Source: Chthonomonadales bacterium (GTDB taxonomy: Bacteria > Armatimonadota > Chthonomonadetes > Chthonomonadales > CAJBBX01). Taken from it: a DNA stretch of 64,000 nt. Position 1 is the stretch's first letter. Each line of letters begins with the position of its first letter. Made by a program: the position numbers and the translations under genes. This document shows positions 4,721-63,233 of this stretch, piece by piece. The stretch is taken from assembly GCA_038229495.1 (NCBI GenBank), contig JBBROJ010000007.1, positions 3,263 to 67,262 of the forward strand, written 5' to 3'. A model generated the notes under the pieces. That model ran no database searches. It was not told where the DNA came from and saw only the letters and a list, made by a program, of their open reading frames with translations.

Positions 4721-4860
4721 GCGAGGCACTGAAGTGACCTCGCTGTCTCAGGCGCTCTGACCAGTGGCGCGTCGAGAACTCTGGGCCTGCGGCAAACGAG
4801 TGAATGAATTCACTCGCTGGAGGGCCTGCAGCCAATCGTCCTCGCGGACGGAAAAATACT
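4721..4860 (+). repeat. MITE-like dispersed repeat, copy A (about 140 bp), between mntR and mntH
   Basis: The ends (GCGAGGCACTGAAGTGAC ... CCAATCGTCCTCGCGGACGGAAAAATACT) match copy C at 33498-33569. The internal palindrome (CGAGTGAATGAATTCACTCG) and the CTGTCTCAGGCGCTCTGACCAGTGGCGCG block match the reverse complement of 43085-43185. Confidence 0.75.
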
Positions 4861-4877
4861 TCAAGGAGCTTGTCACT

Positions 4878-5597
4878 TTACCAGCCCGCTGTGCCCGCCA
4901 GGACTGTTTCTCTCTCCGTCTCCGAAATACGCTCGACAAAGACGTGCCCCGCCAGCTCGCGGCCTACCGAGTGCATGATGCCGCCAATCTCCAGGAGAAG
5001 CGGACCGTTAAAGGGCTGCTTTTCCCTCACGGTAATGACGCCTTCAAGCCGCATTCCGATCCCGGCGAGGTAGCGCAGCGCTTCCGGATCGTTGTCCCGC
5101 ACTCGGAGAACGATCAGCGTATCGCCGGCCTCGCTTTCGGCGAGGGGTTCGCCGCGCTGCGGGGCTACCGTACCCTCGCGTGTCGGAATGGGGTCGCCAT
5201 GCGGATCGCGCACAGGGTAGTCCAGCATGCGATCTATGCGGTCTTCAAACTCTTCGGAGATGTGGTGCTCCAGCTTTTCGGCCTCGGCGTCCACTTCGTC
5301 CCAGCTATAACCAAGCGCCTGATGAAGATAGAGCTCCAGAAGGCGGTGATGCCGAATCACCTCCAGCGCGACGCGTTCTCCCGCCTCGGTCAGGCGGACG
5401 CCGTAGTAGGGCGTGTAATCGAGCAGCCTGCTTTCGGCGAGCGCCTTCATCATCTTGGTGGCGGCGGCGGGAGTCGTCTTCATGCGGCGCGAAAGGGCGG
5501 TCGTAGACACGGCCTCCTCTTCCTGCTGCAATTTGTAGATTACTTTCACGTAGTCTTCCACCGCCTGGCTGAAGACTCGGCCGCCCCTATCACCCAT
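4878..5597 (-). CDS. mntR: DtxR/MntR-family metal-dependent transcriptional repressor with C-terminal FeoA/SH3-like domain
   Basis: 239 aa. It has an N-terminal winged HTH (EDYVKVIYKLQ...ST..LSRRM), a metal-binding/dimerisation region (HHRLLELYL) and a C-terminal SH3-like tail. It lies immediately upstream of mntH on the same strand. Confidence 0.85.
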   Translation of the reverse strand: MGDRGGRVFSQAVEDYVKVIYKLQQEEEAVSTTALSRRMKTTPAAATKMMKALAESRLLDYTPYYGVRLTEAGERVALEVIRHHRLLELYLHQALGYSWDEVDAEAEKLEHHISEEFEDRIDRMLDYPVRDPHGDPIPTREGTVAPQRGEPLAESEAGDTLIVLRVRDNDPEALRYLAGIGMRLEGVITVREKQPFNGPLLLEIGGIMHSVGRELAGHVFVERISETERETVLAGTAGW

Positions 5598-5622
5598 CGA
5601 TTTAACCCCCAGAATATCTTAA

Positions 5623-5638
5623 TTTAACATCGGTTAAA
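5623..5638. promoter_or_regulatory. Candidate MntR/DtxR operator: inverted repeat TTTAAC-ATCG-GTTAAA
   Basis: A perfect 6-4-6 inverted repeat lies 26 bp upstream of the mntR start in an AT-rich patch. An extra TTTAAC half-site is at 5601-5606. Confidence 0.4.
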
Positions 5639-8499: not shown

Positions 8500-9400
8500 G
8501 GGATTCTCCGAGTGCTGAGGGCTGAGCGCCGAGCGCTAATCTTCCCTCTTCCCACCGCGCAACCCCTATTGGAATCGAGACGCCCGGTAAGAAGCGGGGG
8601 GCCTGACATCGGAAAGTATCGGCATTTCCGGTAGTAAGGAGGAGGGAGCGGGCGGACGCGGGATCTGCTTCAACGGAAGTCGAAACGAGCATGTCATGCT
8701 CATTCAACCAGGCCGCAGCTTCGCGGGCCGGATCGATGAACTCTACAGGCTCCGAAAACAGCTCTTCCGATACGCGGCGGAGCACGGGGAGAAGGTAGGG
8801 ATAGTGCGTGCAGCCGAGGATAATCTTACGGCAGCCGAGCTTGGCGAGAAGTTGAAGGTATTCGCGCGCCGCGTCCATCGCGTCCTCGGATTCGGTGCGG
8901 CCTTCCTCTACAAGTGGCACGAACCTGGGGCACGGGACCTGGGCAATCGCGGCGCGGGGATCGCAGCAGTTGATGGTGAAGACGTACGCCCCGCTGTTGA
9001 CAGTGCCCTCGGTCGCCAGCACCCCGATGACGGGCGATTCCGCCTGGAGCTGCAGCTGCGCCTGCCCCAGGTTCTGCACGGCCCTCGCGGACGCAGGGCC
9101 AATCATGCCGACAACAGGCAGCGGAGCCAGTGATCTCTCCACGGAACGAAGCGCGACTGCCGACGAAATGTTGCAGGCCATGACTATGGCGCGGCAGCCC
9201 TGATTCGCCAGAAACTTGCTGATGCCCGTCGCGAACCCATGCACCTCTTCCAGAGGGCGGCCGCCGTAGGGCACGTGAGTCTGGTCGGCAACGTAGAGAA
9301 TACACTCATTCGGACAGATGCGGAGAATGGCGTCTACCACGGTAAGGCCGCCGACTCCCGAGTCGAATATGCCGAGCGCGCCTTCGAAAGGCCGTACCAT
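8489..9400 (-). CDS. murI: Glutamate racemase MurI
   Basis: Carries GIFDSGVGGLTV, ACNISS and GCTHYP motifs. The start is placed at M19 (9400), where TGATG overlaps the stop of the upstream GerMN gene. Confidence 0.88.
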   Translation of the reverse strand: MVRPFEGALGIFDSGVGGLTVVDAILRICPNECILYVADQTHVPYGGRPLEEVHGFATGISKFLANQGCRAIVMACNISSAVALRSVERSLAPLPVVGMIGPASARAVQNLGQAQLQLQAESPVIGVLATEGTVNSGAYVFTINCCDPRAAIAQVPCPRFVPLVEEGRTESEDAMDAAREYLQLLAKLGCRKIILGCTHYPYLLPVLRRVSEELFSEPVEFIDPAREAAAWLNEHDMLVSTSVEADPASARSLLLTTGNADTFRCQAPRFLPGVSIPIGVARWEEGRLALGAQPSALGESLAP

Positions 9401-14242: not shown

Positions 14243-14704
14243 ATGGCAGTAATGGAGCCCCCAATCCCAGACACGATTTGTATTCAGCAGGGTCCGCCTA
14301 ATAGGCCGGATTCAATATGGGATGTACGCGAACGGCTGGAGGAGAACTTCCGGCGCGTCGAGCGGCTGCTGACCGAAATGGAGATGCAGCAGGTTCCGAA
14401 GATGAGGCTGGCGGCCGCTGCCGAGATGAGGCAGCACATCGCCCTGGCGGAGAAAACATTGGAGACGGCCGCGCGCGCCGAAGCGGTGCGAGCGTTCGAG
14501 GAGATCGTGCTAACCGTCCTGTCGGAGGCGAGCGCTAAGGTGCTGCGCAGGGTATTGGAGGCGTTGAAAGCGAGGGGTGCACATGGAAACGATCACGCCG
14601 TACCTGACGTCACTCTGTCGGAAGATAGAGGCGAAGTTCGGCAGCGAGATTTGGGACGACAGGATGCTGAGCTATCGGAGCAGTCCGGAGAGCTTTGCGG
14701 ATGA
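14243..14704 (+). CDS. Coiled-coil hypothetical protein in the terminase small-subunit position
   Basis: 153 aa, directly upstream of and overlapping TerL. Assignment is by position only, with no recognisable motif. Confidence 0.35.
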   Translation: MAVMEPPIPDTICIQQGPPNRPDSIWDVRERLEENFRRVERLLTEMEMQQVPKMRLAAAAEMRQHIALAEKTLETAARAEAVRAFEEIVLTVLSEASAKVLRRVLEALKARGAHGNDHAVPDVTLSEDRGEVRQRDLGRQDAELSEQSGELCG

Positions 14705-16145
14705 GGTGCTCGGCTCGCGCTGGTGGTCGCGGCAGCGTTCGGTGGCCGGGCTGGTAGCTAAGCACCGGCGAACGGCAGTCAAATCCGCGAATGGAGTCGG
14801 CAAGACCTATCTGGCGGCCGATCTGGCGCTCTGGTTTCTCTACACGCACCGCCCGTCGATTGTCCTGACGACTGCCCCTACGTGGAGGCAGGTGCGGCAT
14901 CTGCTCTGGGAAGAGATTCGAAAGCGGATGCGCTCCGCGCGGACGCCGCTGCCGGGAACGCTGCTCAATACGCGAATCTCGGCGGGTGAAGGCTGGTTCG
15001 CGCTGGGGCTGGCGACCGACGATCCGGTCAAGTTTCAGGGGTTTCACGCGGAGAACCTGCTCATTATCTTTGACGAGGCGAGCGGCATCCCCGATCCAAT
15101 CTGGGATGCGGCCGAGGGAGTGGCGGTCGGAAGGCATAACCGGATTCTTGCAATTGGCAACCCGCTGACGACATCGGGCCGGTTCTACAAGCTGTTCCGG
15201 TCTGGGTCCGCGTGGAGAAGAGAGACGATTAGCGCCCTGGAGCATCCGAATGTGACCGGAGAAGAGCCGCCGATTCCCGGCGCGGTAACCCCGGAGGCAA
15301 TTTCCGAGCGAGTCGCGGAGTGGTGCCAAGAAGAGGTCGTTGGGTCGTTGGGTGATGGGGTCGTCGGGGACGGCGCATCTGTAATGCCGGGAGCGTTCGT
15401 GTGGCAAGGGCGGCGGTACAAGCCCAACAACCTATTTAAGGCGCGCGTTTTGGGCGAGTTCCCGGATTCGGAGGATGACACACTCATTCCGCTACCCTGG
15501 ATAGAGGCGGCCGTCGAGCGAGAACTACCACCTCTATCCACGGAAGGGTGCAAGCGCGTGGCGGCGGATGTTGCGCGATTCGGCAGCGACTGTACGGTAA
15601 TCGGAATGCGAATCGGGCCGCGCGTGGTGAGGATGGATGTCGTGCGGGGAGCGGACCTAATGGAGGTGGCGGGCCGTATTATGAAGCTCGCCTATGAGGA
15701 GCATCCTGACAGCATTGCCGTGGACGCAATCGGCCTGGGCGCGGGAGTCGTGGACCGCCTGGTGGAACTGAACCTGGGCGAAGTCGAGGCGGTAAACGTC
15801 GCGAATACGGCGAATAATTCACAACGATTCGCAAACCGGCGCGCCGAGCTCTACTGGTCGCTGCGCGAGCGATTCCGAATTGGCAACATTTCGATTCCGC
15901 GCGATGATGCGCTCGTGGAGGAATTGTCCGGGCTGCGATATTTGCACACGTCCAGGGGCCAGATTAGAATGGAGAGCAAAGAGGATATGAAACGGCGTGG
16001 CATGCATTCGCCGGACAGGGCCGACATGCTGGCGATGCTTTTCGATTCGAGCGCGGAAGTATTGGCCGCGATTCATCCGGGCCGCGCGGCGAGGACGGAA
16101 GATTCGCCGTCAGCGCAATTCCGCTCCGAAATGAACGGCTGGTGA
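14577..16145 (+). CDS. terL: Phage terminase large subunit
   Basis: 522 aa. It has Walker A (KSANGVGKTY), Walker B (LLIIFDEASGI) and a C-terminal RNaseH-like nuclease region (RVAADVARFGSD...DAIGLG). The start is uncertain (14577, 14583 or 14664). Confidence 0.88.
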   Translation: MHMETITPYLTSLCRKIEAKFGSEIWDDRMLSYRSSPESFADEVLGSRWWSRQRSVAGLVAKHRRTAVKSANGVGKTYLAADLALWFLYTHRPSIVLTTAPTWRQVRHLLWEEIRKRMRSARTPLPGTLLNTRISAGEGWFALGLATDDPVKFQGFHAENLLIIFDEASGIPDPIWDAAEGVAVGRHNRILAIGNPLTTSGRFYKLFRSGSAWRRETISALEHPNVTGEEPPIPGAVTPEAISERVAEWCQEEVVGSLGDGVVGDGASVMPGAFVWQGRRYKPNNLFKARVLGEFPDSEDDTLIPLPWIEAAVERELPPLSTEGCKRVAADVARFGSDCTVIGMRIGPRVVRMDVVRGADLMEVAGRIMKLAYEEHPDSIAVDAIGLGAGVVDRLVELNLGEVEAVNVANTANNSQRFANRRAELYWSLRERFRIGNISIPRDDALVEELSGLRYLHTSRGQIRMESKEDMKRRGMHSPDRADMLAMLFDSSAEVLAAIHPGRAARTEDSPSAQFRSEMNGW

Positions 16146-16206
16146 ATTCTGCGAACCATGAGAAACGTGAGAGAAGACAATGCGTGTAAAACGCATGTCT
16201 GGTGGA

Positions 16207-16245
16207 CCTTCGGCCAAACGTCCTTCGGCCAAACGTCCTCCGGAC
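16207..16245. repeat. 2.5 copies of the 15-mer CCTTCGGCCAAACGT
   Basis: Read directly from the intergenic region after terL. An adjacent 8-bp hairpin (GTCCTCCG...CGGAGGAC) follows. Confidence 0.85.
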
Positions 16246-16336
16246 GGTAAGACATTGTTGCATTCGGAGGACGCTTGACGGTGCATCCGTCCCACCGGAC
16301 GCCGATTTACTCCGTTGGGCCGACGTCAGAATCATG

Positions 16337-16365
16337 TTGACTGTGCCCCTCCCGTCTGCTACACT
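16337..16365 (+). promoter_or_regulatory. Sigma70-type promoter TTGACT-17 nt-TACACT
   Basis: Hexamers and 17-nt spacer read directly. It lies about 80 nt upstream of the DUF3467 gene. Confidence 0.55.
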
Positions 16366-16443
16366 GATCACAGCGGGAGGGCCCTTCTCTAAGCGGATGC
16401 CCTTTCCAATTCGCTTCGAATCAAACCGAGGAGAGGGGTTCAA

Positions 16444-16713
16444 ATGAACGACGACGATTTCATCCGCCTGCCGGAATACTACACGGACTCGGTCAATTTC
16501 ATGACCAACATTTACGGCTTCACGCTGGAGTTCGGCGCTACCCAGGCGCAGGAACAGCCGCCGAGACCTCTCGTCCGCATCAAAATGAGCCCGCAGCACG
16601 CCAAGATCATGAGCCTGCTGCTTCGCAAGAACGTGCAGGAGTACGAAAAGCGAATCGGCACCGTCATCCTTCCTGAGGGGCTCTACCAGGAGCTGGGCAT
16701 TCAGGACGAATAG
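16444..16713 (+). CDS. DUF3467 domain protein
   Basis: 89 aa. YTDSVNFMTNIYGFTLEFG...RIKMSPQHAKIMSLLLRKNVQEYEKRIG matches my memory of DUF3467. Confidence 0.6.
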   Translation: MNDDDFIRLPEYYTDSVNFMTNIYGFTLEFGATQAQEQPPRPLVRIKMSPQHAKIMSLLLRKNVQEYEKRIGTVILPEGLYQELGIQDE

Positions 16714-16790
16714 CGAGGCGTGAGGCGTGAGGCGTGAGGCGAGTAGCGCGGGGCGTGAGTTAAGAGTCGAGAGTTAAGAGTCGAGAGTTT
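16713..16790. repeat. Heptamer array (GYGAGGC x about 7) followed by 2 x 14-mer TAAGAGTCGAGAGT
   Basis: Starts on the stop codon of the DUF3467 gene. GAGTCGAGAG is the reverse complement of the CTCTCGACTC units at 22133-22153. Confidence 0.9.
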
Positions 16791-16792
16791 TA

Positions 16793-16824
16793 GAGGGGCC
16801 GCTTCCATATGGAAGCGGCCCCTC
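16793..16824 (+). terminator. Perfect 14-bp GC-rich hairpin GAGGGGCCGCTTCC-ATAT-GGAAGCGGCCCCTC
   Basis: Read directly. The trailing CGCTTT is only weakly U-rich. Confidence 0.55.
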
Positions 16825-16828
16825 CGCT

Positions 16829-18118
16829 TTGGGCGGCCATTCGAGGTCGCGGGAGACAGGTATGGCGCTCACAGACGAATTGAATGGCAGCTACCAGCGG
16901 GCCGCAGAGAAGACAGCGCCGGAACAGTTCCGCGAGGAGATGACCGCGTGGGACGCCGTGTTCCGTCAGGCGTTTCGGATTCCACCCTACAATCCTGACG
17001 GCCTGTTATCGTCGCGCGGCATTGAGACCTACGACAAGATGATGGCCGATAGTCAGATTCGGGCCTCGATCAATACAAAACGTTACGCCTTACTCGCCCG
17101 GCCGTGGCAGGTTTTCCCATCCGTAAAGGACCAGGCGCACCCGGAATACCGCGCGGCATGCGAGGCGCGGGACTTCGTCGAGGATGCGCTTCGGAGCCTG
17201 CGCGGGCCGGACGGATCGGGCCGCGAATTTCGCCACACCCTTTTCGAGATGATGTCGGCGTTCTATCGCGGGTTCTCGCTGGCCGAGATGATCTGGCGGG
17301 TGGAGGAGCGGGGACGATGGCGGGGCAGGTATACGCTCGGGGCCATCAAGTTCAAGAATCCGAAGCAGATCGGCTTCGAGCTGGACGATTACCTCAACGT
17401 GCAGGCGGTGACGAGCCTCACCCCGACCGGCGGCCTGGTGAGTGTGCCCCGCGGCAAGTGCTTGCTCTATGTTTATAACCAGCGGGACGAGCTACCCTAC
17501 GGAGACAGCGATCTGCGCGCGGTCTACAAGCACTACATGAGCAAGCTGCGAATCATCGAGTTTTGGAACCTGCGATTGCAGCGGTTCGGCATTCCCTTCG
17601 CCTTTGCGAGCGTGGGGAACGGATCGGATACGCAATCCAGTAAGGTCAAGGAAATTCTGAGGGACTTCCAACAGGAATCGAGCGCGGTTTTCCCCACGAA
17701 CGTCAAGCCGGAGCTTCTCGAGCCGCGCAGCGATACCGGCGATCCGTTCCTGAGCGCATTGGAGTGGCACAACCAGCAGATCGCCGTCGGCATCTTGCTG
17801 CAAACGTTAACATCAACCGAAGGCAAGCGATCTGGCTCCATGGCGCTGGGGCGGGTGCATTTCGACATCCTTCTGTTCGCGCTGGAGTGCATGAAGCAGG
17901 ATATTGAAGCTACGGTGAACGCGCAGATAGTGCGCCCGCTGATCGACTACAACTTCGGGCATGGGCTGTACCCCTCGTTCTCGCTGGGGAATCTGGACGA
18001 AAAGGACCTACCCAAGCTGGCTCAGGCGGTGGACGTACTGCTAAGACACCAGGTCGTGGGGCCGAAGGAGCCGGTTCTGCGGGAGATGTTCAATCTGCCC
18101 GCGGCGGAAGAGGGATAG
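16829..18118 (+). CDS. Phage portal protein (DUF935 / Mu gp29-like)
   Basis: 429 aa, located after terL. N-terminal region ETYDKMMADSQIRASINTKRYALLARPWQV is typical of DUF935 portals. The likely start is M at 16862. Confidence 0.75.
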   Translation: MGGHSRSRETGMALTDELNGSYQRAAEKTAPEQFREEMTAWDAVFRQAFRIPPYNPDGLLSSRGIETYDKMMADSQIRASINTKRYALLARPWQVFPSVKDQAHPEYRAACEARDFVEDALRSLRGPDGSGREFRHTLFEMMSAFYRGFSLAEMIWRVEERGRWRGRYTLGAIKFKNPKQIGFELDDYLNVQAVTSLTPTGGLVSVPRGKCLLYVYNQRDELPYGDSDLRAVYKHYMSKLRIIEFWNLRLQRFGIPFAFASVGNGSDTQSSKVKEILRDFQQESSAVFPTNVKPELLEPRSDTGDPFLSALEWHNQQIAVGILLQTLTSTEGKRSGSMALGRVHFDILLFALECMKQDIEATVNAQIVRPLIDYNFGHGLYPSFSLGNLDEKDLPKLAQAVDVLLRHQVVGPKEPVLREMFNLPAAEEG

Positions 18119-18120
18119 AA

Positions 18121-18240
18121 GTCGTTGGGTCGCCCCCGGCCCCCAATTCTGGGGGAGTATGCGGGTGGTTGGGTCGTTGGGATGCCCCCCGGCCCCCAAT
18201 CCTGGGGGAGTATGCGGGTGGATGGGCCGTTGGGCGGGCG
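18121..18240. repeat. Two about 50-bp direct repeats, each containing GGGTCGTT-type octamers plus the hairpin GGCCCCCAATYCTGGGGGAGTATGCGGGTGG
   Basis: Copy 1 is 18121-18168 and copy 2 is 18169-18221. The array begins 2 nt after the portal stop. ORF 18169..18384 over it looks spurious. Confidence 0.9.
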
Positions 18241-18327
18241 TTTAACACTCATTCCAGTGTAGAAGCGGCGCAAGCGGAGGCCAGGACGTCTCCGATTGTC
18301 TACAGGCGAAGCGGCGCAACTACAATG

Positions 18328-18353
18328 AGGGAGGCCGCAATAGCGGCCTCCCT
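18328..18353. terminator. Hairpin AGGGAGGCCGC-AATA-GCGGCCTCCCT (bidirectional terminator candidate)
   Basis: An 11-bp perfect stem lying 36 nt beyond the stop of the minus-strand PEP-CTERM gene. Confidence 0.55.
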
Positions 18354-18388
18354 TGAGTTTACTCGTGAATTTGGAGCGCTCTGAATGT

Positions 18389-18958
18389 CTATGCGCGCTT
18401 ACGACGGATCAAGTACGCAGCGCCCGGAACGAGCATTCCGGCCATCAGGCCCAGCGTGCCCGGCTCAGGAACGCTGTTCGCGACCTGGGTTACGCTGATG
18501 TCGTCGATGCGAAGGTAAGACGGATCTTGTCGAAAGCCGAACTTCAGATTCGTGCTGGCGCCGGTGGCAGCGACATTATAGGAATACTCGGTGTAACCTC
18601 CCGCAGGCAGCGTATCAGGGCTGCCGGTACGGTCGTCAATAATGGATCCATCCCACGAAACTTGAAATTCGCGGGTGCCGCCGTCGACCTGCAGCCATAG
18701 GTCGATCAGGTACGACGCTCCAGGCGCGGTGACGATGTTCTGCTCGATAAACCCGAGGGAACCGACCGGGCCAAATTGTGCGGCCCAAAGCCCCGTATGC
18801 ACAGGAGAGGTGACGACGCTCGTAAATCCCATATTGCCGGAACGGACCCATCCTGAGAAGTCGCCTGTTTCGAAATCGCCATTTACGACCTGTGCTCGCG
18901 CCGCAAGAGGCGCGATTGCCAGGGCTATTAGCCCAAGAACTACGACCGGATTCTTCAT
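18389..18958 (-). CDS. PEP-CTERM sorting-domain protein with CBM/DUF642-like beta-sandwich
   Basis: 189 aa with a signal peptide and NGDFETGDFSGW. The C-terminal VPEPGTLGLMAGMLVPGAAYLIRRKRA is a PEP-CTERM anchor. Confidence 0.85.
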   Translation of the reverse strand: MKNPVVVLGLIALAIAPLAARAQVVNGDFETGDFSGWVRSGNMGFTSVVTSPVHTGLWAAQFGPVGSLGFIEQNIVTAPGASYLIDLWLQVDGGTREFQVSWDGSIIDDRTGSPDTLPAGGYTEYSYNVAATGASTNLKFGFRQDPSYLRIDDISVTQVANSVPEPGTLGLMAGMLVPGAAYLIRRKRA

Positions 18959-19116
18959 CTGATATACACTCCTGAATCTGAAAAATGAGTAGTCTGCTGG
19001 CAGTCAGCAGACTCAACCGTTCAGAGTGCATATCAGCAATCATCATGCCAGAAAGGGGCGTTGGGGACCAAACAGGTACATGCGCGGGCGTGGCTTCACG
19101 CTCGGGAGCGTGCTTT

Positions 19117-19893
19117 TCAGGTGTCCTTACGAGGTGTTTCCAGCGGCTCCCATTCTAGGAGCCGCTTCCCTTTTTCGTGTTTGAATGCTCTGCCGGAGGT
19201 GTCGCCCGTAATGTGGATTACCTCAAAGCCGTCGTGATCGAGCAGCAGCGCCGCTTCGAGGGCGCGGGCAAGGTCGGGGGCGCTTGTTCGCGGATCGATC
19301 GCTTTGGCAGGATCGTGCTTTGCGTGCCAATCCTCTCTCGATACCGGCAGGAAGAGGCGAAGAACAAGAATAGGGAGATGGTGGACGCGATGGGCGAATC
19401 TACATGCCTCTTCGCCCATCCACTTGGTCAGACCGTATACGCTTAGCGGCTCGGGCGTCACCGTTTCACTGTCATATGCGCCGCTCAGGAGATCATGGCC
19501 ATCGTGGACCGACAGACTGCTCGTATAGACTGCGCGGCCGATGCCCGCCTGTACGGCAGCCTCCATCGCGAGATGGACACCCTTCACGTTTACGTCGTGC
19601 GCGGCGGCAATATTCTGGATGCCGCCGGGCTGCGCACTGCCCATCGCCATGTAAAGTAGGAGGTCCATGCCCTCCACTGCTCTTTTGAGCGAATCGAAAT
19701 CCGTCACTTCGCCCAGAATAAAGTCCTCTGTGATGGATTCCCAGACCCTTTTAGCGGAAGGCGACCGGTCATACACACGCAGTTGAAATCGCTCTTGCAG
19801 CAGCGGGAGCACAAGGCCGGCGACGTATCCGCTGCCGCCGACCACGAGAAGTTTCGGGCGGCTTTCGGATGGCTGGTCGTTTTGCATTCCCAT
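19117..19893 (-). CDS. NAD-dependent epimerase/dehydratase family protein
   Basis: Rossmann motif LLVVGGSGYVAG and an SDR-like body. The start is chosen at M17 (19893), which is preceded by GAGGGGA. The ORF is open to 19941. Confidence 0.75.
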   Translation of the reverse strand: MGMQNDQPSESRPKLLVVGGSGYVAGLVLPLLQERFQLRVYDRSPSAKRVWESITEDFILGEVTDFDSLKRAVEGMDLLLYMAMGSAQPGGIQNIAAAHDVNVKGVHLAMEAAVQAGIGRAVYTSSLSVHDGHDLLSGAYDSETVTPEPLSVYGLTKWMGEEACRFAHRVHHLPILVLRLFLPVSREDWHAKHDPAKAIDPRTSAPDLARALEAALLLDHDGFEVIHITGDTSGRAFKHEKGKRLLEWEPLETPRKDT

Positions 19894-19940
19894 GAACGGA
19901 TTCCCCTCGACCATTTTACTTGTTCGCCAGGAGGAACACA

Positions 19941-20969
19941 ATGGATTCTGAACGCCTCAAATGGAAATTTACAAATGACGGGGCTTTCGTGGAACGGGAG
20001 TGCCTGCTCTTCGAGGCAGGCGAATACCCCGACCGCGGCGTTACGATCACACCCGCAGATCTACTCGCCATCGCGAAGAACTCGCCGGAATCGATACCGG
20101 TCAGGGTGGAGCACCTTGCGCGATCTCCGTTCGATGGAGCGCTTGGCGCTGTAATGCGCCTGCGGGCTGTTGGGAACCGACTCTGGGGAACCCTCCGTCA
20201 GCCTGCGGAGGCCTGGCAGTTCGTACAGAGAGCGGGCGCGAAAGCCCTGTCGGTCGCTATCGACACCGGTGCTACGAAAGGGTGGCGGCTGGCAGAGGTG
20301 TCATTCGTGTGCTTGCCTCGCGTGGCGAGCGCGCAGGTTTTTAACGACAACGGCAATGACAACGCCAATCTAGGAGCGCAGCCGTCATGCCGCGCTCTAT
20401 TTCATTCGTCTCCACTCTTTGGTCAGGGTGAGACGGAAACAGAGGAGGAGAGAGACATGGTAAGCGTGCGGCAGTTTGCCGATGGCTTGATGCTGTATGT
20501 GCGCAGCATGCTGGGAGCAGAGGCTGGTAATACGGAGGAGTTTTCCCGCGCGTTGTCCGCCGAGCGCACACAACTCTCCACGGAGCGAGACATGCTCCAA
20601 AGTGAGCGGGTCGGCCAGAAGATCGAAGAGATGAAACGGCGCGGCCTTATCCGCGCCACGGATGAGACGCAGGAGCTGGCAAAGTCGTTGCTGCTATTCG
20701 GTGTGACAAATGTCGTACAATTTAATAACGAACCTGTCAGCATTGATCGGCTGTTCATGCGCTTTCTGGAAGCCAACGGCCCCGTCGTTCCTATGGGCGA
20801 GGTGGCAGCGGCCGTTCCCGAAATGCACGGCGCCTCGGACCGCTTGATTGCCCTCGCGGGCGAAGCGTCGCGGCGGGACGGCCTTCCCTATGTTACGGCT
20901 TTCTCGCGGGTAAGCGCCGCGCATCCGGAGCTCGCCCGTGCCGCCCGCGAGGAGAGCATCAACGGATAA
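19941..20969 (+). CDS. Putative prohead protease-scaffold fusion (Mu gpI-like N-terminal domain, coiled-coil C-terminal half)
   Basis: The N-terminus (FEAGEYPDRGVTITPADLLAIAKNSPESIPVRVEH) resembles Mu-like prophage protein I. The C-terminal half is acidic and coiled-coil. It sits between the portal and capsid genes. Confidence 0.5.
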   Translation: MDSERLKWKFTNDGAFVERECLLFEAGEYPDRGVTITPADLLAIAKNSPESIPVRVEHLARSPFDGALGAVMRLRAVGNRLWGTLRQPAEAWQFVQRAGAKALSVAIDTGATKGWRLAEVSFVCLPRVASAQVFNDNGNDNANLGAQPSCRALFHSSPLFGQGETETEEERDMVSVRQFADGLMLYVRSMLGAEAGNTEEFSRALSAERTQLSTERDMLQSERVGQKIEEMKRRGLIRATDETQELAKSLLLFGVTNVVQFNNEPVSIDRLFMRFLEANGPVVPMGEVAAAVPEMHGASDRLIALAGEASRRDGLPYVTAFSRVSAAHPELARAAREESING

Positions 20970-20996
20970 CGGGAAATCAACCACCCGTTTTGATTG

Positions 20997-21087
20997 AGGC
21001 ACAGAGACACAGAGTTGGAAGGAAGCTGATTCGAGCTTAAGGTCAGGTTACACTCCTCCTTGCTCTTCTCTGTGTCTCCCTGTCTCT
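20997..21087. repeat. Inverted repeat GAGACACAGAG (21004-21014) / CTCTGTGTCTC (21068-21078) built from CAGAGA-type short repeats
   Basis: Read directly. It lies between the scaffold gene and the DUF2190 gene. Confidence 0.8.
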
Positions 21088-21131
21088 AGCGAAGCGGGTG
21101 GTAAATCGCATCTTTTTCGAAGGAGAATGAA

Positions 21132-21548
21132 ATGGCGAAACAGACGCCTCTTCTGGTAAAGTCGTTTGCGGCCGACACGGCCATTGCGAATGCGAACGTA
21201 TGCGTGGTCATGTCGGGAGCCAATGCTGGTAACGTGACGCTTCCGGGCGGCGCGCTGGCAACCAAGTTTGCCGGGATCACATGGGAGCCCGTGCAGTCCG
21301 GCTCCACGGCCAATGAGATCGCCGTGCAGGTCGCGGGAATTGCGCAGATCCAGACGGACGGCTCCGCGCTTATCGCCGCGGGTGACTACGTGGCGATTGC
21401 CAATGCGTCGGGACAGATAAAGACGGTCGTGCCTGCCACCGGCGCCGTTCTGCGGCAGGTAGTGGGAATCGCGGTGAGCGGCGCGACCAACACAGCCGGC
21501 CTGCTCGTTGACGTGCTGCTTCAACCGGCAATCTATATCGGCGCATAG
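21132..21548 (+). CDS. DUF2190-family head decoration / capsid cement protein
   Basis: 138 aa, Ala/Gly/Val-rich beta protein. GDYVAIANASGQIKTV and VVGIAVSGATNTAGLLVDVLL are typical of DUF2190. It lies immediately before the capsid gene region. Confidence 0.6.
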   Translation: MAKQTPLLVKSFAADTAIANANVCVVMSGANAGNVTLPGGALATKFAGITWEPVQSGSTANEIAVQVAGIAQIQTDGSALIAAGDYVAIANASGQIKTVVPATGAVLRQVVGIAVSGATNTAGLLVDVLLQPAIYIGA

Positions 21549-21711
21549 ACGAGAACGGCGTCACGCTGCGTCACAAATGGCGGACTCTAGCGTCTCACGT
21601 AATGAAGGTCGAGTACGGAGTCGAGAAAAGGAATGCTCGAATCGAATCTCGAATAGTACGTAGAATCGCGATACTGTGGCGAACTGGTCGCCACGACAAG
21701 GGAGTTCCGAT

Positions 21712-21984
21712 ATGGTCAAGAAGATCGTTGCATTGATGGCAGCGGGTGCATTCGCCGCGTCCCTCTCAACTGTTGCCGTCGCACAAAAGGACAAGCACAA
21801 GACGGCAAAGCACAATCCAACCTGTCCCGTCTGCAAGATGGAGTTCTCCTCAACGAAGGACGACAAGAATCCCGTAGCCGTAAAGGCAGGAAAGAAGACT
21901 GTCTACTGCTGCTCCGGCTGCGACATGAAGGACTGGAAGAAAGACAAGAAGGGCACCCTGCTTCTGCCCAAAGAGAAGAAGTAA
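21712..21984 (+). CDS. Secreted small YHS/TRASH-like metal-binding protein
   Basis: Signal peptide MVKKIVALMAAGAFAASLSTVAVA. CPVCKM...YCCSGCDMKDW resembles the YHS/TRASH pattern CPVCGM...Y.FCS..C. The start is at M13, preceded by AAGGGAG. Confidence 0.5.
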   Translation: MVKKIVALMAAGAFAASLSTVAVAQKDKHKTAKHNPTCPVCKMEFSSTKDDKNPVAVKAGKKTVYCCSGCDMKDWKKDKKGTLLLPKEKK

Positions 21985-22011
21985 GCGTTCGTTCATTTTA
22001 GACCCGAGCAT

Positions 22012-22046
22012 TCACAATGGACCGCCAATTTGGCGGTCCATTGTGA
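22012..22046 (+). terminator. Perfect 15-bp hairpin TCACAATGGACCGCC-AATTT-GGCGGTCCATTGTGA
   Basis: Read directly, 28 nt after the stop at 21984. There is no clear U-tract. Confidence 0.5.
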
Positions 22047-22111
22047 TTCGGCGAAGATAAGAAATAACCCATCGACCATGATCCGCCCGGCGCTAACCCG
22101 CCGGGATTTCT

Positions 22112-22160
22112 CACGACTCACGACTCACGACTCTCGACTCACGACTCTCGACTCACGACT
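22112..22160. repeat. Seven tandem heptamers CWCGACT ending 1 nt before the capsid gene Shine-Dalgarno
   Basis: The units read CACGACT x3, CTCGACT, CACGACT, CTCGACT, CACGACT. GAGGAG follows at 22161-22166 and the ATG is at 22173. Confidence 0.92.
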
Positions 22161-22172
22161 GAGGAGACTTCC

Positions 22173-23192
22173 ATGCCAACCCTTGGACAGATTCACATCG
22201 ATCAGGCGCTCACCAACATTTCCGTGATGTACCGCAATGAGACCTACATCGGCGATCAGGTCCTTCCCACCGTGCCCGTTGCCCAGCGCTCCGACAAGTA
22301 CTTCCTCTACAAAAAGGAGGACTTCCTCAGCCCCAGCGGCTCCAGCGGAACCGGCGCGCTCAACTCACTCCGCCGCCCCGGATCCGAAGCCGCCGAGATC
22401 GACTATGGCGTCTCCACAGCGAGCTACTTCGCGGAAGAGTACGCCTATCGCGGCATTGTCACCGATGCGGAAGTCGCAGTCGCGGACAATCCCATGCAGC
22501 CGGACATGGACCAGACCGTTCAGCTTACCGAGCGGCTGATGCTCGATAATGAGGTGTCTGTTGCCACCATCGTATGCAAGCGCGCCAACTATCCGTCTTC
22601 CAACCGAGTGGCGCTCACCGGTGGAGGCACTGGAACTTCATGGGCGCAATATACAAGCGCCAACTCCACTCCGTTCACCGACATTAAGAACGGTAAGCTG
22701 GCCGTTATCAAAGGAATCGCACGGGAAGCGAACGCGCTGCTCCTCGGTGTCGATACCGCGCGAACGCTTGCAGACCATCCAAACGTGAAAGACCTGGTTA
22801 AGTACGTCCATCAGGATGCGCTCACAATGAGTGGGCTGCCCAAAGTGCTTCGCGGTATGACCGTCATTGAAGGCGCGACGCAGAAGAACACCGCCGCCGA
22901 GGGAGCTTCCTATACCGGCGCAAATGTGTGGCAGGCCGACGACGGAACAGGATTCGCGCTCCTGTACTACCGGAATCCCAATCCGACGCTCCGTTCCGTC
23001 AGTCTCGGCTACACCTTCGATGCGCCGGACGACGCCACTGGCGCGCGTGGCTATGCAGTTCGGCGTTGGCGAGAAGAGAAGCGCAAAGGCTCCATGATTG
23101 AGGTCGCGTTCCTTCGAGATTGGCGTCTCATCGCCGTGGATGGCTCCGGTCTGGCGCTTGGAGGCTATCTGGTCAGCAGCGCGACTCTCTAA
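22173..23192 (+). CDS. Phage major capsid protein (HK97-fold, capsid protein E-like family)
   Basis: 339 aa. N-terminus QALTNISVMYRNETYIGDQVLPTVPVAQRSDKYFLYKKEDF matches my memory of this MCP family. Its position after the decoration and scaffold genes also fits. Confidence 0.7.
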   Translation: MPTLGQIHIDQALTNISVMYRNETYIGDQVLPTVPVAQRSDKYFLYKKEDFLSPSGSSGTGALNSLRRPGSEAAEIDYGVSTASYFAEEYAYRGIVTDAEVAVADNPMQPDMDQTVQLTERLMLDNEVSVATIVCKRANYPSSNRVALTGGGTGTSWAQYTSANSTPFTDIKNGKLAVIKGIAREANALLLGVDTARTLADHPNVKDLVKYVHQDALTMSGLPKVLRGMTVIEGATQKNTAAEGASYTGANVWQADDGTGFALLYYRNPNPTLRSVSLGYTFDAPDDATGARGYAVRRWREEKRKGSMIEVAFLRDWRLIAVDGSGLALGGYLVSSATL

Positions 23193-23268
23193 AGACCCAA
23201 CGGCATAACGATGACGGCCGGCCAGGATAGCTTGCGGCCGGCCGTCAAACAAACAGGAGGGAACGAGA

Positions 23269-23565
23269 ATGCCCGACTACGCCGCGGTATCAGTCTTTAG
23301 CCCCCGTACGCGGCGATGGGAGCTCATGAGCGACAGGGGCCGAGTGATTGTGTTCGATACAGCGGAGGTAGCCTGGAACTGGCTGCCTCTGCTCGGAGGC
23401 GGGCGTACCTATGCATCGGACGCCCGTTCTCTTTCTCTCTGCTTTCTGGAGCTGTCCGGCGTCGCTCCCAATCGCGCGCGGGTCGTAACGCACTACATGC
23501 CCGAAGAGCGCGCGCCATGGCGGGGCCATATCATTTGGTCCGAATGGTGGGACAGACAATTGTAA
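23269..23565 (+). CDS. Hypothetical protein (phage module)
   Basis: 98 aa ORF with an AGGAGGGAACGAG SD region upstream. No family recognised. Confidence 0.45.
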   Translation: MPDYAAVSVFSPRTRRWELMSDRGRVIVFDTAEVAWNWLPLLGGGRTYASDARSLSLCFLELSGVAPNRARVVTHYMPEERAPWRGHIIWSEWWDRQL

Positions 23566-23663
23566 GTGCTGAGTGCTGAGTGATGAGTGCTGAGTAGGGA
23601 GCAACCTCCGTGTTGCGCCGTGTTCTTGACGTTCTCTCAGCACTCGGCACTCAGCACTCAGCG
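23566..23663. repeat. Complementary heptamer arrays GTGCTGA x4 (23566-23593) and CTCAGCA x4 (23636-23663) flanking a 42-nt loop
   Basis: Starts on the nucleotide after the stop codon. The loop contains AGGGAGCAACCTCCGTGTTGCGC (23596-23618), the exact reverse complement of 63321-63343. Confidence 0.92.
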
Positions 23664-23681
23664 CTAAAGAGGGAGGTTCCC

Positions 23682-24071
23682 ATGATTGCATTCACTTACG
23701 ACGCCGGCACGCTCGTTGGCCAGGTGCGGCTGTACTCGGGAGATACCGATGCTGACGGCTTGAACCGCGTGGGCGGCGATCGCACGCGTACCGACGATGA
23801 GGTCGCCCTGCTGCTTGCTCAGCACGACAATAATCCACGACTGGCCGCCGCCGCCCTGCTCGAATCCCGCGCGGCGGAGTTCGCGGGCCTCTCGACCAAC
23901 ATCACGCAGGGCACGCTGCGGCAGGACTACCGTCAGCGGAGTCTTCGCCTTCTGCAAGCGGCGGAGATGCTGCGGGCATCGGCTCGCGCTTCGGCGCTGC
24001 CAGTCTGGAATCCGCCCACCCGGGCCGCCCCATTTACGGCCGGAGAAGGTGGCACAATGGATGATTGGTGA
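23682..24071 (+). CDS. Hypothetical protein in head-tail adaptor position
   Basis: 129 aa from the ATG at 23682, preceded by GAGGGAGG. The upstream part of ORF 23610.. crosses the repeat and looks spurious. The adaptor call is by gene order only. Confidence 0.45.
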   Translation: MIAFTYDAGTLVGQVRLYSGDTDADGLNRVGGDRTRTDDEVALLLAQHDNNPRLAAAALLESRAAEFAGLSTNITQGTLRQDYRQRSLRLLQAAEMLRASARASALPVWNPPTRAAPFTAGEGGTMDDW

Positions 24072-24082
24072 GGAGGGCGTTC

Positions 24083-24152
24083 AGGTATCAGGTTCCAGGT
24101 ATCGGCCTCACCTGCCACCTGTCACCTGACACCTGTTACCTGACACCTGAAC
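24083..24152. repeat. CAGGTWY x3 followed by 6 x YACCTGW heptamers (mutually complementary), ending at the SD of the next gene
   Basis: Read directly. GGAGG is at 24156-24160 and the ATG at 24169. GGTGTCAGGTG at 57007-57030 is the complement of these units. Confidence 0.9.
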
Positions 24153-24168
24153 ACCGGAGGACAACACG

Positions 24169-24588
24169 ATGGCGTTTCCCAAGAGCCCTTTAACTAGAGA
24201 TGATTTGGACCGGACTCCAACACGCTCCGGCAACCTGCCTGGAACGATTAACTCTGGTCTCATCTTCCTGGAGTACGTGAATATCGAGCGCAAGATCGCA
24301 AGCGTGTGGACCGCTGTCGTTTCAAATTTGCCCGCGACGTTCGAGCCGATCAGCACGGACCGCAGGCTGAAGCTTGAGACGTGGACTCACAAGCCCATCT
24401 TCTGCGTCTGGCTTCCGCCGGATGCGCCGATTCAGGACGGCGATCGCATTATCCGTTGCGATGGCTCGCACTGGTATCTGCGGGGGGCTGCAATTGCCTC
24501 GCCGGATCGTACTCACATCGCCCTGGTGGCCGAGGCCGCCACCGAAGATAACCTGTTTGCCGCCCGGACCGCTTCCGAACCACCGTAG
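24169..24588 (+). CDS. Hypothetical protein in head-closure/connector position
   Basis: 139 aa ORF with a good SD. Assignment is by position only. Confidence 0.4.
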   Translation: MAFPKSPLTRDDLDRTPTRSGNLPGTINSGLIFLEYVNIERKIASVWTAVVSNLPATFEPISTDRRLKLETWTHKPIFCVWLPPDAPIQDGDRIIRCDGSHWYLRGAAIASPDRTHIALVAEAATEDNLFAARTASEPP

Positions 24589-24614
24589 GTCTCCGCGGGC
24601 CGGCAGCTGGAGGC

Positions 24615-24872
24615 ATGAAAATGAACATGCATGAACGAGGAGAGATGGGCCAGATGCGCGACTGCATCCAGCAGCTTGCGGTCGAAATTGCGCGATTGAG
24701 CCAGGCGGTCGAGCCGCTTGTGCGGATGCAGCAGGACCAGGACAGCCTGCGCGACCGAGTGGCCCAACTAGAAGGATTCCGCGCCGCGCTGCTCTGGCTT
24801 TCGGGCCTGAGCGTAATCAGCGCACTGTTTCGTTACCTGGTCTCATTTTGGATGGGAGGAACCGACCGATGA
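24615..24872 (+). CDS. Small coiled-coil protein with C-terminal TM helix
   Basis: 85 aa. LLWLSGLSVISALFRYLVSFW is a predicted TM segment. Holin-like topology is possible but not supported by any motif. Confidence 0.4.
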   Translation: MKMNMHERGEMGQMRDCIQQLAVEIARLSQAVEPLVRMQQDQDSLRDRVAQLEGFRAALLWLSGLSVISALFRYLVSFWMGGTDR

Positions 24873-25078
24873 ATAGAATTTTGCGAAGCCTGCGCGCTCC
24901 GCCGTCGCTGCTCATAGCCTACGCCGTACTCCGTGCCGACGCAGTGGCCGCGTTCAATGACCCCGCCGTCAGCAACGCGCTGGATCGTTTCAAAGCCGAT
25001 CCCGCCATCGCACCGCTTGTTCCGCGAATCTCGTCGGAATGGCGCGCGGTCGAGGATGCCCTGGAGCAGATGCGTTAA
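24869..25078 (+). CDS. Small hypothetical protein
   Basis: 69 aa from M8 of ORF 24848... An ATGA start/stop overlap with the preceding gene suggests coupling. Confidence 0.35.
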   Translation: MNRILRSLRAPPSLLIAYAVLRADAVAAFNDPAVSNALDRFKADPAIAPLVPRISSEWRAVEDALEQMR

Positions 25079-25152
25079 GACGTGCGAGACTGCCAATACC
25101 GGAAAGTTGGCCTTAAGCTTCAAGAATTATGCTTATTGAGAGGAGGTGAATT

Positions 25153-25503
25153 ATGCCCGACGGATTCGCAAAAGTGAGGCGCGGAGAGAAGCGACCGCTC
25201 TATGGGCAGGTGTCGGTGGCGACGGGAACGCTCACCATCGCTGCCAGCCCTGCCCCGAGCTGCACTGTGTACGATTCAAATGGAACAGCAGTCGCGGGGC
25301 TGTCGGCGGTGGCCGTTACAGCGTTCGACGCCGCCGCCCTCGCCGCGCCGCAAATCTGGCTCGATCTGGATACGACTACACCAGCGGACCTTGCGCCGGG
25401 TTTCTATACGCTCGTCTTCAAGCTGAATGCAACCGGCTCCGATGGAATCGCCCGCATTCTGGAGCCAGCCATAGAGTTTCAGGTGCTGGACGTACGGGCG
25501 TAA
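25153..25503 (+). CDS. Hypothetical Ig-like/beta-sandwich protein (last gene of the phage-like module)
   Basis: 116 aa, preceded by GAGAGGAGG. Beta-rich composition; no family recognised. Confidence 0.4.
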   Translation: MPDGFAKVRRGEKRPLYGQVSVATGTLTIAASPAPSCTVYDSNGTAVAGLSAVAVTAFDAAALAAPQIWLDLDTTTPADLAPGFYTLVFKLNATGSDGIARILEPAIEFQVLDVRA

Positions 25504-31973: not shown

Positions 31974-32005
31974 ACGGTACGAGATTTGAGATTGTGACCT
32001 CTTCC
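31974..32005 (-). repeat. Decayed copy of the 3' half of tRNA-Val (att-like direct repeat)
   Basis: ACGGTACGAGATTTGAGATTGTGACCTCTTCC compared with tRNA gene 33119-33150 GCGGTACAAGATTTGAACTTGTGACCTCTTCC. That is 28 of 32 identical, in the same orientation. Confidence 0.7.
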
Positions 32006-32057
32006 TCGGCATGGAAGAGGCCACAATTACCCCAACTAGCAGGAGAGCAGTAACGGG

Positions 32058-33112: not shown

Positions 33113-33187
<75 letters not shown>

Positions 33188-38825: not shown

Positions 38826-38903
38826 CCGGATTATTCACGTGGAGAGCGGAGCTACGGAATGTGGCGGAGGTTGCTCCCTACGTGGGATTAACGAATAATC
38901 CGG
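38826..38903. repeat. 78-bp hairpin-type element: 11-bp terminal inverted repeat CCGGATTATTC/GAATAATCCGG around the core CGGAGGTTGCTCCCT
   Basis: The core at 38865-38879 is identical to part of the 23-nt core at 63321-63343 and 23596-23618. Confidence 0.7.
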
Positions 38904-39122: not shown

Positions 39123-39151
39123 TTGACACGCCTGGAACGGACGGATATAAT
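39123..39151 (+). promoter_or_regulatory. Perfect-consensus sigma70 promoter TTGACA-17 nt-TATAAT
   Basis: Hexamers at 39123-39128 and 39146-39151 read directly. Confidence 0.7.
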
Positions 39152-39157
39152 AACTGG

Positions 39158-43084: not shown

Positions 43085-43185
43085 ATGTGTTTCCCGTCCG
43101 CGAGGACGGTTGGCCCATGGCCCAGAGTTCTCAGGCGCGCCACTGGTCCGAGCGCCTGAGACAGCGAGTGAATTCATTCACTCGT
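43085..43185 (-). repeat. MITE-like dispersed repeat, copy B (inverted relative to copy A)
   Basis: Its reverse complement reads ACGAGTGAATGAATTCACTCGCTGTCTCAGGCGCTCGGACCAGTGGCGCG..GAGAACTCTGGGCC..CCAACCGTCCTCGCGGACGGGAAA. This aligns block by block with 4738-4858. Confidence 0.75.
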
Positions 43186-43224
43186 ATGAGTGCGGATTTG
43201 AAAGCTGGAAATATCTGTTTGGAA

Positions 43225-44133
43225 ATGAAACACGACGAGAGTGTAGTTATGAGCCCGACCCAAAGGAAGCTCTCCGCGGAAGCAATGGAAGATGTGCGGC
43301 TGCGCGCGACGCTGCGAGCGCAAAAGCGCATTCTGGTGATTGTGCTCTTGCTGCCTGCCGGATATGCGCTGACGCTCGGATTGCCCATTGAGATCCGAGC
43401 GGCTCTGCTCGCCATATGGGGAGTTCTGTTTCTGCTCGTTACCGCCAAGGCCGCCTTTCCTATGCTCCAACTGTCCGGCGAGAAGTTCTCAATACAGAGC
43501 GAAGATGCGATTCGCGCGCTTGCCGAAGAGGACAATCCGGAGAACATCGGCATATTGATAGACGCGGAGGCTGTGGCATGGGCAGAAAGCAGACAAGCGA
43601 TTCAGACCGCGCTGACACGACTTTTGCCGGCCGCTTCGGTCGGTTTAGCAGGCGAGCATCTTGAATTGCTCTACACGCACCTGAATGTCTTCGCGAGGTT
43701 AACAGCCTACACGACCACGCCGATGACCTGGTCGGCCTACCCGCTCGGAGGCGCATGGGAGCGGACCAAGGTCATCTCCGAAGAGTTTCCTGAGCTGCGC
43801 GAAAAGTACATCGATTTCCTGGTCGCGATTCTGGCAGGGCTGGAGAATTTTGGAACCGCCGATTCAGTGCGCTATGTCGAGGCATTGGCTAACGGCGAGC
43901 CAAAGACTGCTCAGGCTGACCGAATCCAGCAGGCGGCCTGGCAGTGTCTCGACGCAATCCACGAACGCCTTGAAGCGGAGCGGCTGGGCAGGACGCTTCT
44001 TCGCTCCGCCTCCGAGCCAATAGACGCGCTGCTCCGCCCCGCGACGCATACCGCCGCTAATGCGCCCGAATCGCTGCTAAGGTCGAATGCGCCGGACGAC
44101 GATGACCAGAACGTGACCGACTCATCGGGATAG
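43225..44133 (+). CDS. Membrane-anchored helical-repeat hypothetical protein
   Basis: Start chosen at MKHDES (43225), downstream of the repeat. It has two TM helices followed by an alpha-helical domain. No family recognised. Confidence 0.45.
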   Translation: MKHDESVVMSPTQRKLSAEAMEDVRLRATLRAQKRILVIVLLLPAGYALTLGLPIEIRAALLAIWGVLFLLVTAKAAFPMLQLSGEKFSIQSEDAIRALAEEDNPENIGILIDAEAVAWAESRQAIQTALTRLLPAASVGLAGEHLELLYTHLNVFARLTAYTTTPMTWSAYPLGGAWERTKVISEEFPELREKYIDFLVAILAGLENFGTADSVRYVEALANGEPKTAQADRIQQAAWQCLDAIHERLEAERLGRTLLRSASEPIDALLRPATHTAANAPESLLRSNAPDDDDQNVTDSSG

Positions 44134-63226: not shown

Positions 63227-63233
63227 GCGGTAT

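Follow-up and report, generated by a model that had tools for sequence, protein, structure and literature searches.

The hairpin at 23566-23665 of the 64-kb stretch of Chthonomonadales DNA analysed here (the window) is one of many tandem-repeat hairpins in the intergenic gaps of this lineage and shows no sign of a dedicated function. The core of its loop recurs elsewhere in the window and, judged by the relatives and collections scanned, appears to be a short repeat found in this genome only. The explanation that we favour, with somewhat better than even confidence, is an STRR-like hairpin that carries in its loop a low-copy, REP/BIME-like mosaic repeat, spread by recombination or template switching. 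The type of element is ordinary; the phylum in which it occurs is unusual. All features claimed in the original prediction were recovered, each at its position. Of the interpretation attached to them, the dispersed repeat is supported; no support was obtained for the principle of one conserved core with variable arms or for the proposed protein/RNA recognition site.

Hairpin, loop core and core copies

The hairpin begins, as had been described, on the base right after a stop codon, the TAA of the 98-aa gene (23563-23565, read from the sequence), and ends 18 nt ahead of the next ATG at 23682 (Table 1). The units of the left array (23566-23593) read GTGCTGA GTGCTGA GTGATGA GTGCTGA, and the right array is followed by CTAAAGAGGGAGGTTCCC and then by the ATG. 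Both arms are tandem arrays with units in the range of 5-11 nt and at least three copies (4.4 on the left and 3.9 on the right according to TRF), and as an inverted pair they form a hairpin between co-directional genes at 23566-23665. Because seven is not a multiple of three, the GTGCTGA array places TGA in three of three reading frames. The repeat finder delivered arms of 30 nt (23565-23594 / 23636-23665) with 90% complementarity and 41 nt between them. RNA of the + strand folds with an MFE of -64.2 kcal/mol, compared with -36 +/- 3.7 for shuffles (z = -7.6); the value for the - strand of the hairpin is -59.3 kcal/mol. No site resembling an intrinsic terminator was detected at the hairpin or at core copy 2; the 3' arm is followed by CTAAAGAGGGAGG.

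Table 1. Coordinates of the hairpin, the core copies and the arrays in the window
Feature	Position	Strand	Description
Left arm	23566-23595	+	(GTGCTGA)x4 + GT; first base directly after TAA of the 98-aa gene
Core copy 1	23596-23620	+	25-mer AGGGAGCAACCTCCGTGTTGCGCCG; holds small stem GCAAC/GTTGC
Spacer, unpaired, 15 nt	23621-23635	+	TGTTCTTGACGTTCT; absent from copy 2
Right arm	23636-23665	+	CTCAGCA CTCGGCA CTCAGCA CTCAGCG + CT (heptamers 23636-23663)
Ribosome-binding site and start codon	23670-23684	+	AGGGAGG and ATG (23682) of the 129-aa head-cluster gene; both unpaired in the hairpin fold
Core copy 2	63319-63343	-	25-mer, exactly reverse-complemented
Insert relative to copy 1, 33 nt	63344-63376	-	Sequence reading: 29 nt + duplicated CCCT; hairpin GCGGCC-ACATAG-GGCCGC
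(ACTCAGC)x2.7 array	63377-63396	+	Corresponds on the opposite strand to the GAGTGCT array; junction with the core identical to that of copy 1
(TGGGTCGT)x10.5 octamer array	63233-63316	+	Other side of core copy 2; begins 7 nt past the stop of the RING-finger gene
Partial core copy 3	38865-38881	-	GTAGGGAGCAACCTCCG; 17 nt identical to copy 1; BLAST E = 1e-4
Palindromic element with copy 3, 78 nt	38826-38903	.	11-nt terminal inverted repeats CCGGATTATTC / GAATAATCCGG
Two possible degenerate core relatives	18266-18334	+	CGGCGCAA-N-GGAGG, hairpin after each; 3' of GGGTCGTT octamers that follow the portal gene
Array-armed hairpin	1757-1879	+	(GGGTCAAT)n / (ATTGACTA)n; -61 kcal/mol, z = -6.6
Array-armed hairpin	20980-21102	+	GAGACACA-type arms, 53-nt loop
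Array-armed hairpin	24076-24155	+	(TCAGGTA)n / (CACCTGA)n; next intergenic gap after the hairpin ahead of the 129-aa gene
Third GAGTGCT-type array	8510-8537	+	GAGTGCT GAGGGCT GAGCGCC GAGCGCT

The 23-mer of the loop matches the window at exactly two places, 23596-23618 (+) and 63321-63343 (-), against a chance expectation of 0 (none in 100 shuffles). The exact reverse complement reported 40 kb away is thus real, and the identity reaches 25 nt, the inverted 25-mers being separated by 39.7 kb. Core orientation is + in copy 1 and - in copy 2, which lies after a prokaryotic RING-finger gene, and both gaps are flanked by + strand genes. Common to the two copies is also the junction (GAGTGCT)n-GAGTAGGG. 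On the opposite strand copy 2 runs GAGTGCT GAGTGCT GAGT AGGG (33 nt) AGCAACCTCCGTGTTGCGCCG, and its array-core junction therefore matches that of copy 1. This junction is split by the 33-nt insert, flanked by a direct 4-nt repeat (CCCT/AGGG); it is the GC-hairpin insertion that had been placed between the core and the ACTCAGC heptamers, and the predicted pairing is present. The identity of copies 1 and 2 ends abruptly after GCGCCG, where the octamer array (CCAACGAC)n follows in copy 2. Slippage alone cannot put an identical 25-mer together with its array junction at two places 40 kb apart, and in this respect the objection to an origin by random slippage was justified.

The third, partial copy is located within a 78-nt element, as had been stated, and shares 17 nt (not 15) with copy 1; the element occupies the gap that separates the divergent genes for the E1 dehydrogenase and the M16 peptidase. 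Copies 1 and 3 are alike in GTAG-GGAG-CAAC-CTCC. A search with small word size gave no additional core copies in the window, and the known copies number three within these 64 kb. The two possible degenerate relatives of the core are of low confidence, since the pattern was picked after the sites had been seen. The core can be folded as GGAG-CAAC-CUCC, as suggested earlier; ViennaRNA favours a stem GCAAC/GUUGC with the loop CUCCGU, and both are non-significant alone (z = -1.3).

A search for the 23-mer in related genomes had been proposed as a check. The core is absent from approximately 190 kb of related loci with up to 5 mismatches allowed. In a genome contig collection that does not include the source genome, an 18-mer of the core gave three unrelated single matches, in Chloroflexia, Bartonella and Prolixibacteraceae. 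The metagenome scan with a 15-mer, a pattern too short to discriminate, gave at least 120 single matches, which are regarded as chance because they have no flanks in common. In the viral collections the 23-mer had zero matches and the 15-mer solely chance matches within genes. At the Rfam gathering score the sole match in the window was tRNA-Val, with nothing at the core or hairpin, and permissive E-values added just sub-threshold matches to microRNA-precursor hairpins.

The promoter scan indicated no sigma-70 promoter at copies 1 and 2. Copy 3 is situated upstream of the perfect sigma-70 promoter TTGACA-N17-TATAAT (39124-39152) of the M16 peptidase gene, and the organism therefore appears to use canonical promoters. 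An ECF-sigma promoter (GCAAC-N16-GTT, by eye) was considered and rejected, as the would-be -10 element falls outside the shared 25-mer.

Genomic setting and arrays across related loci

Copy 1 lies inside a phage-like head-gene cluster with genes for a large terminase, a Mu-type portal, a major head protein and proteins of 98, 129 and 139 aa. The closest named relatives of the E1 dehydrogenase gene (77% identical) belong to Chthonomonadales (Armatimonadota) metagenome-assembled genomes. For the major head protein there are many relatives of 339 aa with 70-87% identity, and their contigs retain the head-gene order and the same cellular neighbours; the cluster has thus been vertically inherited, and its gaps are comparable between species. 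On a phage contig with a 60% identical capsid protein the gaps are tight and without arrays, so that the arrays belong to the host lineage and not to the ancestral phage.

The head-only cluster extends over 14577-25503 (cf. the related contigs L149-L157) and comprises the large terminase, a DUF3467 protein, the Mu-type portal, a cement-like 138-aa protein, a lambda gpE-type major capsid protein and six small proteins. Its gene order and cellular neighbours are kept in at least five related species, and the capsid identity of 83-87% is close to the 82% of E1, a housekeeping gene. Tail genes are absent from the vicinity, and the capsid is less than 30% identical to any phage of the reference collection. 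By these comparisons the cluster looks like a domesticated, possibly gene-transfer-agent-like, one rather than a recent prophage. Octamer arrays are also present within the terminase ORF at a matching place in two species (window 15335-15368, encoding VVGSLGDGVVGDG; L149 at about 3936), with an in-frame indel of 24 nt between L149 and L150/L151. Elsewhere in the window, tRNA-Val(GAC) has a 43-nt partial copy, 84% identical and 1.1 kb off, at the 5' end of an MFS transporter ORF (31975-32017 and 33113-33187); the copy may be what an integrated element left behind. An inverted duplicate of approximately 115 nt with 82-97% identity (4739-4855 / 43090-43188) occupies the 5' ends of two ORFs without Pfam match, 4764-5627 (+) and 43131-43553 (-).

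Arrays with a period of 6-10 and at least three copies number 19 in the window, compared with about 1.2 in Markov-1 random sequences (approximately 15-fold over-representation). They are mainly intergenic, 12-13 of the 19 being located in the non-coding part that makes up about 18% of the window. At least four inverted array pairs fold as hairpins, namely 23565-23665 and the three further ones listed in Table 1. The same units occur more than once: GAGTGCT-type arrays at 8510, 23566 and 63377, and GGGTCGTT-type arrays at 15335, 18121 and 63233. The sense strand folds better in 18 of 27 co-directional gaps, with a mean difference of -4.8 kcal/mol (Wilcoxon p = 0.017); this bias is a weak, modest sign of RNA-level selection, and base composition could also account for it.

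Heptamer arrays of the CTCAnnA type (CTCACGA, CTCAGCA, CTCAACA) recur on the sense strand directly 5' of ribosome-binding sites; sites of this type are 22110-22160, 23636-23663, 8510-8537 and 63377-63395 in the window and 11566-11607 in L149. Another motif of about 25-32 nt, CCCCCGGCCCCCAATCCTGGGGGAG, is found in two copies after the portal gene (18121-18234) with GGGTCGTT octamers on the flanks, and as its reverse complement in four tandem copies with a period of 32 at 50290-50411 (within 50287-50415). The sequence GGGGGCCGGGGGG in the relative L126 resembles this motif.

Logan contigs (SRR19962015) are near-identical to the window (5 mismatches over 9.8 kb, 1 over 6.0 kb), and copy 2 is found again in this independent assembly, as is the right arm of copy 1. 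The contig ends lie in or next to arrays: L125 starts at window position 23616 in the hairpin loop, L148 ends at 1849 and L001 starts at 54226. Since the contigs break there, elements of this type are a cause of fragmentation in short-read assemblies.

Chthonomonadales-like DNA (189 kb) carries 5.2 arrays per 10 kb and 10 inverted pairs, compared with 1.7 arrays per 10 kb and 4 inverted pairs in a 723-kb control made up of unrelated metagenome loci. The head-cluster gaps of L149, L151 and L152 likewise contain arrays and array-armed hairpins, which fill the distance between stop codon and ribosome-binding site and have units that differ from those of the window, e.g. GTGATGA, GTGTGGGT, GGAAATT and ACGCAAAG. 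The hairpin structure recurs at matching positions and the sequence does not; units vary by species and by gap. This generality is what speaks against a conserved core with variable arms as a principle: array-armed hairpins are generic in the lineage, mostly with unrelated loops, and in L152 an arm sequence recurs in two gaps with different loops. Arms of the GGATT type (GGACGGGATTAATAGGATTT...) recur in several gaps of the relatives with differing GC-rich loops (L152 6752-6959 and 8650-8827; L158 3573-3717), the reverse of a scheme in which the core is constant and the arms vary.

The strains L149, L150 and L151 share 98.6-99.8% DNA identity and differ in array copy number. Their colinear indels (24 nt, 15 nt) are all within arrays, as slippage predicts, and the L149/L151 alignment additionally breaks at a third array. 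Contrary to the earlier dismissal of slippage, array copy number between strains does therefore change through slippage-type indels; at the 23566 locus the Logan contigs are near-identical to the window.

The gap matching that of the hairpin measures 62 nt in L149-L151 and holds, without a core, a (CTCAACA)x6-type array just 5' of the ribosome-binding site, with the units CTCAACA CTCAACA CTCCACA CTTAACA CTTAGCA CTCGCGA. L152 and L154 have a hairpin of GTGTGGG units in the matching gap, and in L157 the two genes overlap at this position. The C-termini of the 98/99-aa proteins are colinear between the window and the relatives. Because an array of this kind stands at the same place in L149-L151, the right arm is probably the older part of the hairpin; because the closest relative has it there by itself, left arm and core are most likely a lineage-specific addition. 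The simplest reading, taken from one sister lineage, would thus be an older (CTCARCA)n array and a gain of left arm and core in the lineage of the window, with loss in L149 as the alternative. At the other loci the relatives differ: behind the RING-finger gene they have a gap of 48-104 nt that is free of arrays and followed by a different gene, and relatives of the E1 dehydrogenase gene do not retain the gene neighbouring copy 3.

Origin of the hairpin and its core

According to the explanation favoured here, the hairpin would be a member of a lineage-wide intergenic class with arms of inverted arrays of 7-8 nt tandem repeats. The arrays would lengthen and shorten through replication slippage, which is shown between strains of a relative and is presumed for the 23566 locus, and inverted partner arrays could plausibly arise and stay symmetrical by intrastrand template switching. 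The core would be a low-copy dispersed repeat, the unit (GAGTGCT)n-GTAGGG-core being common to two loci and a fragment being present at the third. Its spread would most likely have started in same-unit arrays, by ectopic recombination, gene conversion or template switching, with the arrays serving as homology and carrying adjacent unique sequence along into a BIME/BOX-like mosaic, and with no nearby-encoded transposase behind it. Upstream of the 129-aa gene, left arm and core would have been joined to the older (CTCARCA)n array. Simple homologous conversion leaves the inverted placement of the array-core unit relative to this resident array unexplained.

On the polycistronic mRNA of the head cluster a stem of about 30 bp would stand between stop codon and ribosome-binding site and leave the latter free. 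Such a stem would most likely be a determinant of mRNA processing or stability, or be without effect; by analogy with the STRR hairpins (PMC2670836) it could protect or process the upstream cistron.

Among the other explanations the one that survives best, though unlikely, regards the whole hairpin 23566-23665 as a MITE with heptamer-array terminal inverted repeats that inserted at a TAA between two closely spaced genes, copies 2 and 3 being truncated or rearranged. TAA is found at both ends of the hairpin (TAA, GTGCTGA...CAGCGC, TAA) and could be a target-site duplication, which would speak for insertion of a mobile element, but a flank match of 3 nt is weak and could be chance, and neither the 78-nt element nor the other array hairpins are surrounded by a duplication. 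The attraction of this reading is that removal of the hairpin leaves a clean tight junction, TAA-AGAGGGAGGTTCCC-ATG, of the typical kind, at a position where the genes overlap in L157; an empty-site variant would read TAA-AGAGGGAGG. Copy 3 lies within an element that itself has 11-nt terminal inverted repeats. The window holds, however, no second full-length copy, since copy 2 consists of one arm and the core with an unrelated octamer array opposite and copy 3 of 17 nt, and a CTCARCA-type array already occupies the position of the right arm in L149-L151. The ORFs scanned in the window contain no transposase, integrase or Y1 (RAYT-type) domain, and the earlier statement that no transposase partner is evident holds for the window.

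Rather unlikely, too, is a more far-reaching scheme, in which array-armed hairpins would be a selected class of intercistronic RNA in Chthonomonadales, constant in position though not in sequence and present within the domesticated phage head cluster too, and their loops would be seeded by small mobile cores such as the GTAG-hairpin 25-mer through a hypothetical HUH/RAYT-like enzyme.

REP elements have a conserved 5' GTAG and an imperfect palindrome of about 20-40 nt, occur in tens to hundreds of copies per genome and flank the Y1 (RAYT) gene. It is quite improbable that the core is a REP-like site of this kind (GTAG and a small hairpin), spread by a RAYT- or IS200/IS605-type HUH transposase elsewhere in the genome. 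The string GTAG-GGAG-CAAC-CTCC of copies 1 and 3, the intergenic position of the copies in both orientations and the 33-nt insert of copy 2 immediately after GTAGGG would agree with it, and REP/BIME elements are described as intergenic mosaics (PMC3333891). Against it, the stem comprises just 4-5 bp (z = -1.3), the copies lack the inverted pairing that is usual in BIMEs, and the window encodes no Y1 transposase. In these 64 kb, 3 copies are visible.

Equally doubtful is a cis element, either a site bound by a protein or an RNA motif in which CCUCC / GGAGG would mask or mimic ribosome-binding sites, and with it the recognition site of the original prediction. The copies are 100% identical, AACCTCC of the core (23603-23609) is exactly complementary to GGAGGTT (23672-23678) of the downstream ribosome-binding site, and CGGCGCAA-N-GGAGG occurs 4 times compared with 0.06 expected, for a pattern picked after the sites had been seen. 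The core has, however, opposite orientations in two gaps between + strand genes and copy 3 is upstream of the predicted sigma-70 promoter of the neighbouring gene, which make a strand-specific RNA role unlikely; moreover, the core is missing from the matching gaps of the relatives, there is no Rfam family, and identical copies offer no covariation.

The exact 25-nt inverted repeats 39.7 kb apart could finally be sites of recombination or could bound a 40-kb segment able to invert or move, a reading that is extremely improbable and was rejected on account of the third, partial copy between them, the absence of a recombinase encoded in the window and the position of one end midway in a conserved head-gene cluster with the same order of genes in relatives.

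Known systems and meaning for the lineage

Cyanobacterial STRR (short tandemly repeated repetitive) heptamer hairpins are located, for example, between hupS and hupL in Nostoc and Anabaena, where transcript stability or translational coupling has been proposed and the function is unproven (PMC2670836). The hairpins described here resemble them in tandem 7-nt units, in their position in intergenic DNA between co-transcribed genes and in their ability to fold. They differ in occurring in Armatimonadota, in other unit sequences with an own unit for each gap and in 8-nt units that are as common as 7-nt units; in addition, the loop of the 23566 hairpin carries a dispersed repeat. Cyanobacterial STRR families comprise CCCCAGT and others, whereas the units here are GTGCTGA, GGGTCGTT and others, so that the working is STRR-like and the sequence family different.

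Long simple sequence repeats with units of 5-11 nt, among them TAACTGA heptamer arrays 5' of start codons, were treated by MacGregor (2015, PMC4679880), reviewing Mrazek et al. (2007). Beggiatoaceae have one dominant unit, and inverted sets are rare (1/170; PMC4679880). As in Beggiatoaceae, the heptamers here are mostly intergenic and end just 5' of start codons, slippage is the proposed source, and CTCAnnA arrays stand on the sense strand just 5' of ribosome-binding sites (22110-22160, 23636-23663, L149). Unlike there, many units exist and inverted pairs are common.

With REP/BIME elements of Enterobacteria and Pseudomonas the core shares the organisation as small intergenic mosaics of a short hairpin core and varied flank modules in either orientation. 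The likeness is one of organisation only, as the core stem has 4-5 bp, inverted pairs are absent and no RAYT gene was seen in the window. Modular BOX elements of Streptococcus pneumoniae are comparable small intergenic mosaics, and REP/BIME elements are known for effects on mRNA stability. MITEs are similar in a hairpin of about 100 nt, terminal inverted repeats, intergenic position and a possible TAA duplication; they differ in that no second full-length copy exists here, the arms are local arrays of the ordinary sort and one of them is apparently older than the rest.

A little-studied phylum thus joins the bacteria whose intergenic DNA is full of 7-8 nt arrays and derived hairpins, and such arrays can move short unique sequences from locus to locus. 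The interest is modest and rests mainly on the phylum and on the high frequency of inverted arrays there; of practical relevance is that the arrays break short-read assemblies. If the hairpins were selected RNA elements, structure would be maintained while slippage turns the sequence over, and they would offer a handle on the tuning of expression within a phage-derived gene cluster. Should a selected class with mobile cores prove true, it would be the first such system described in Armatimonadota.
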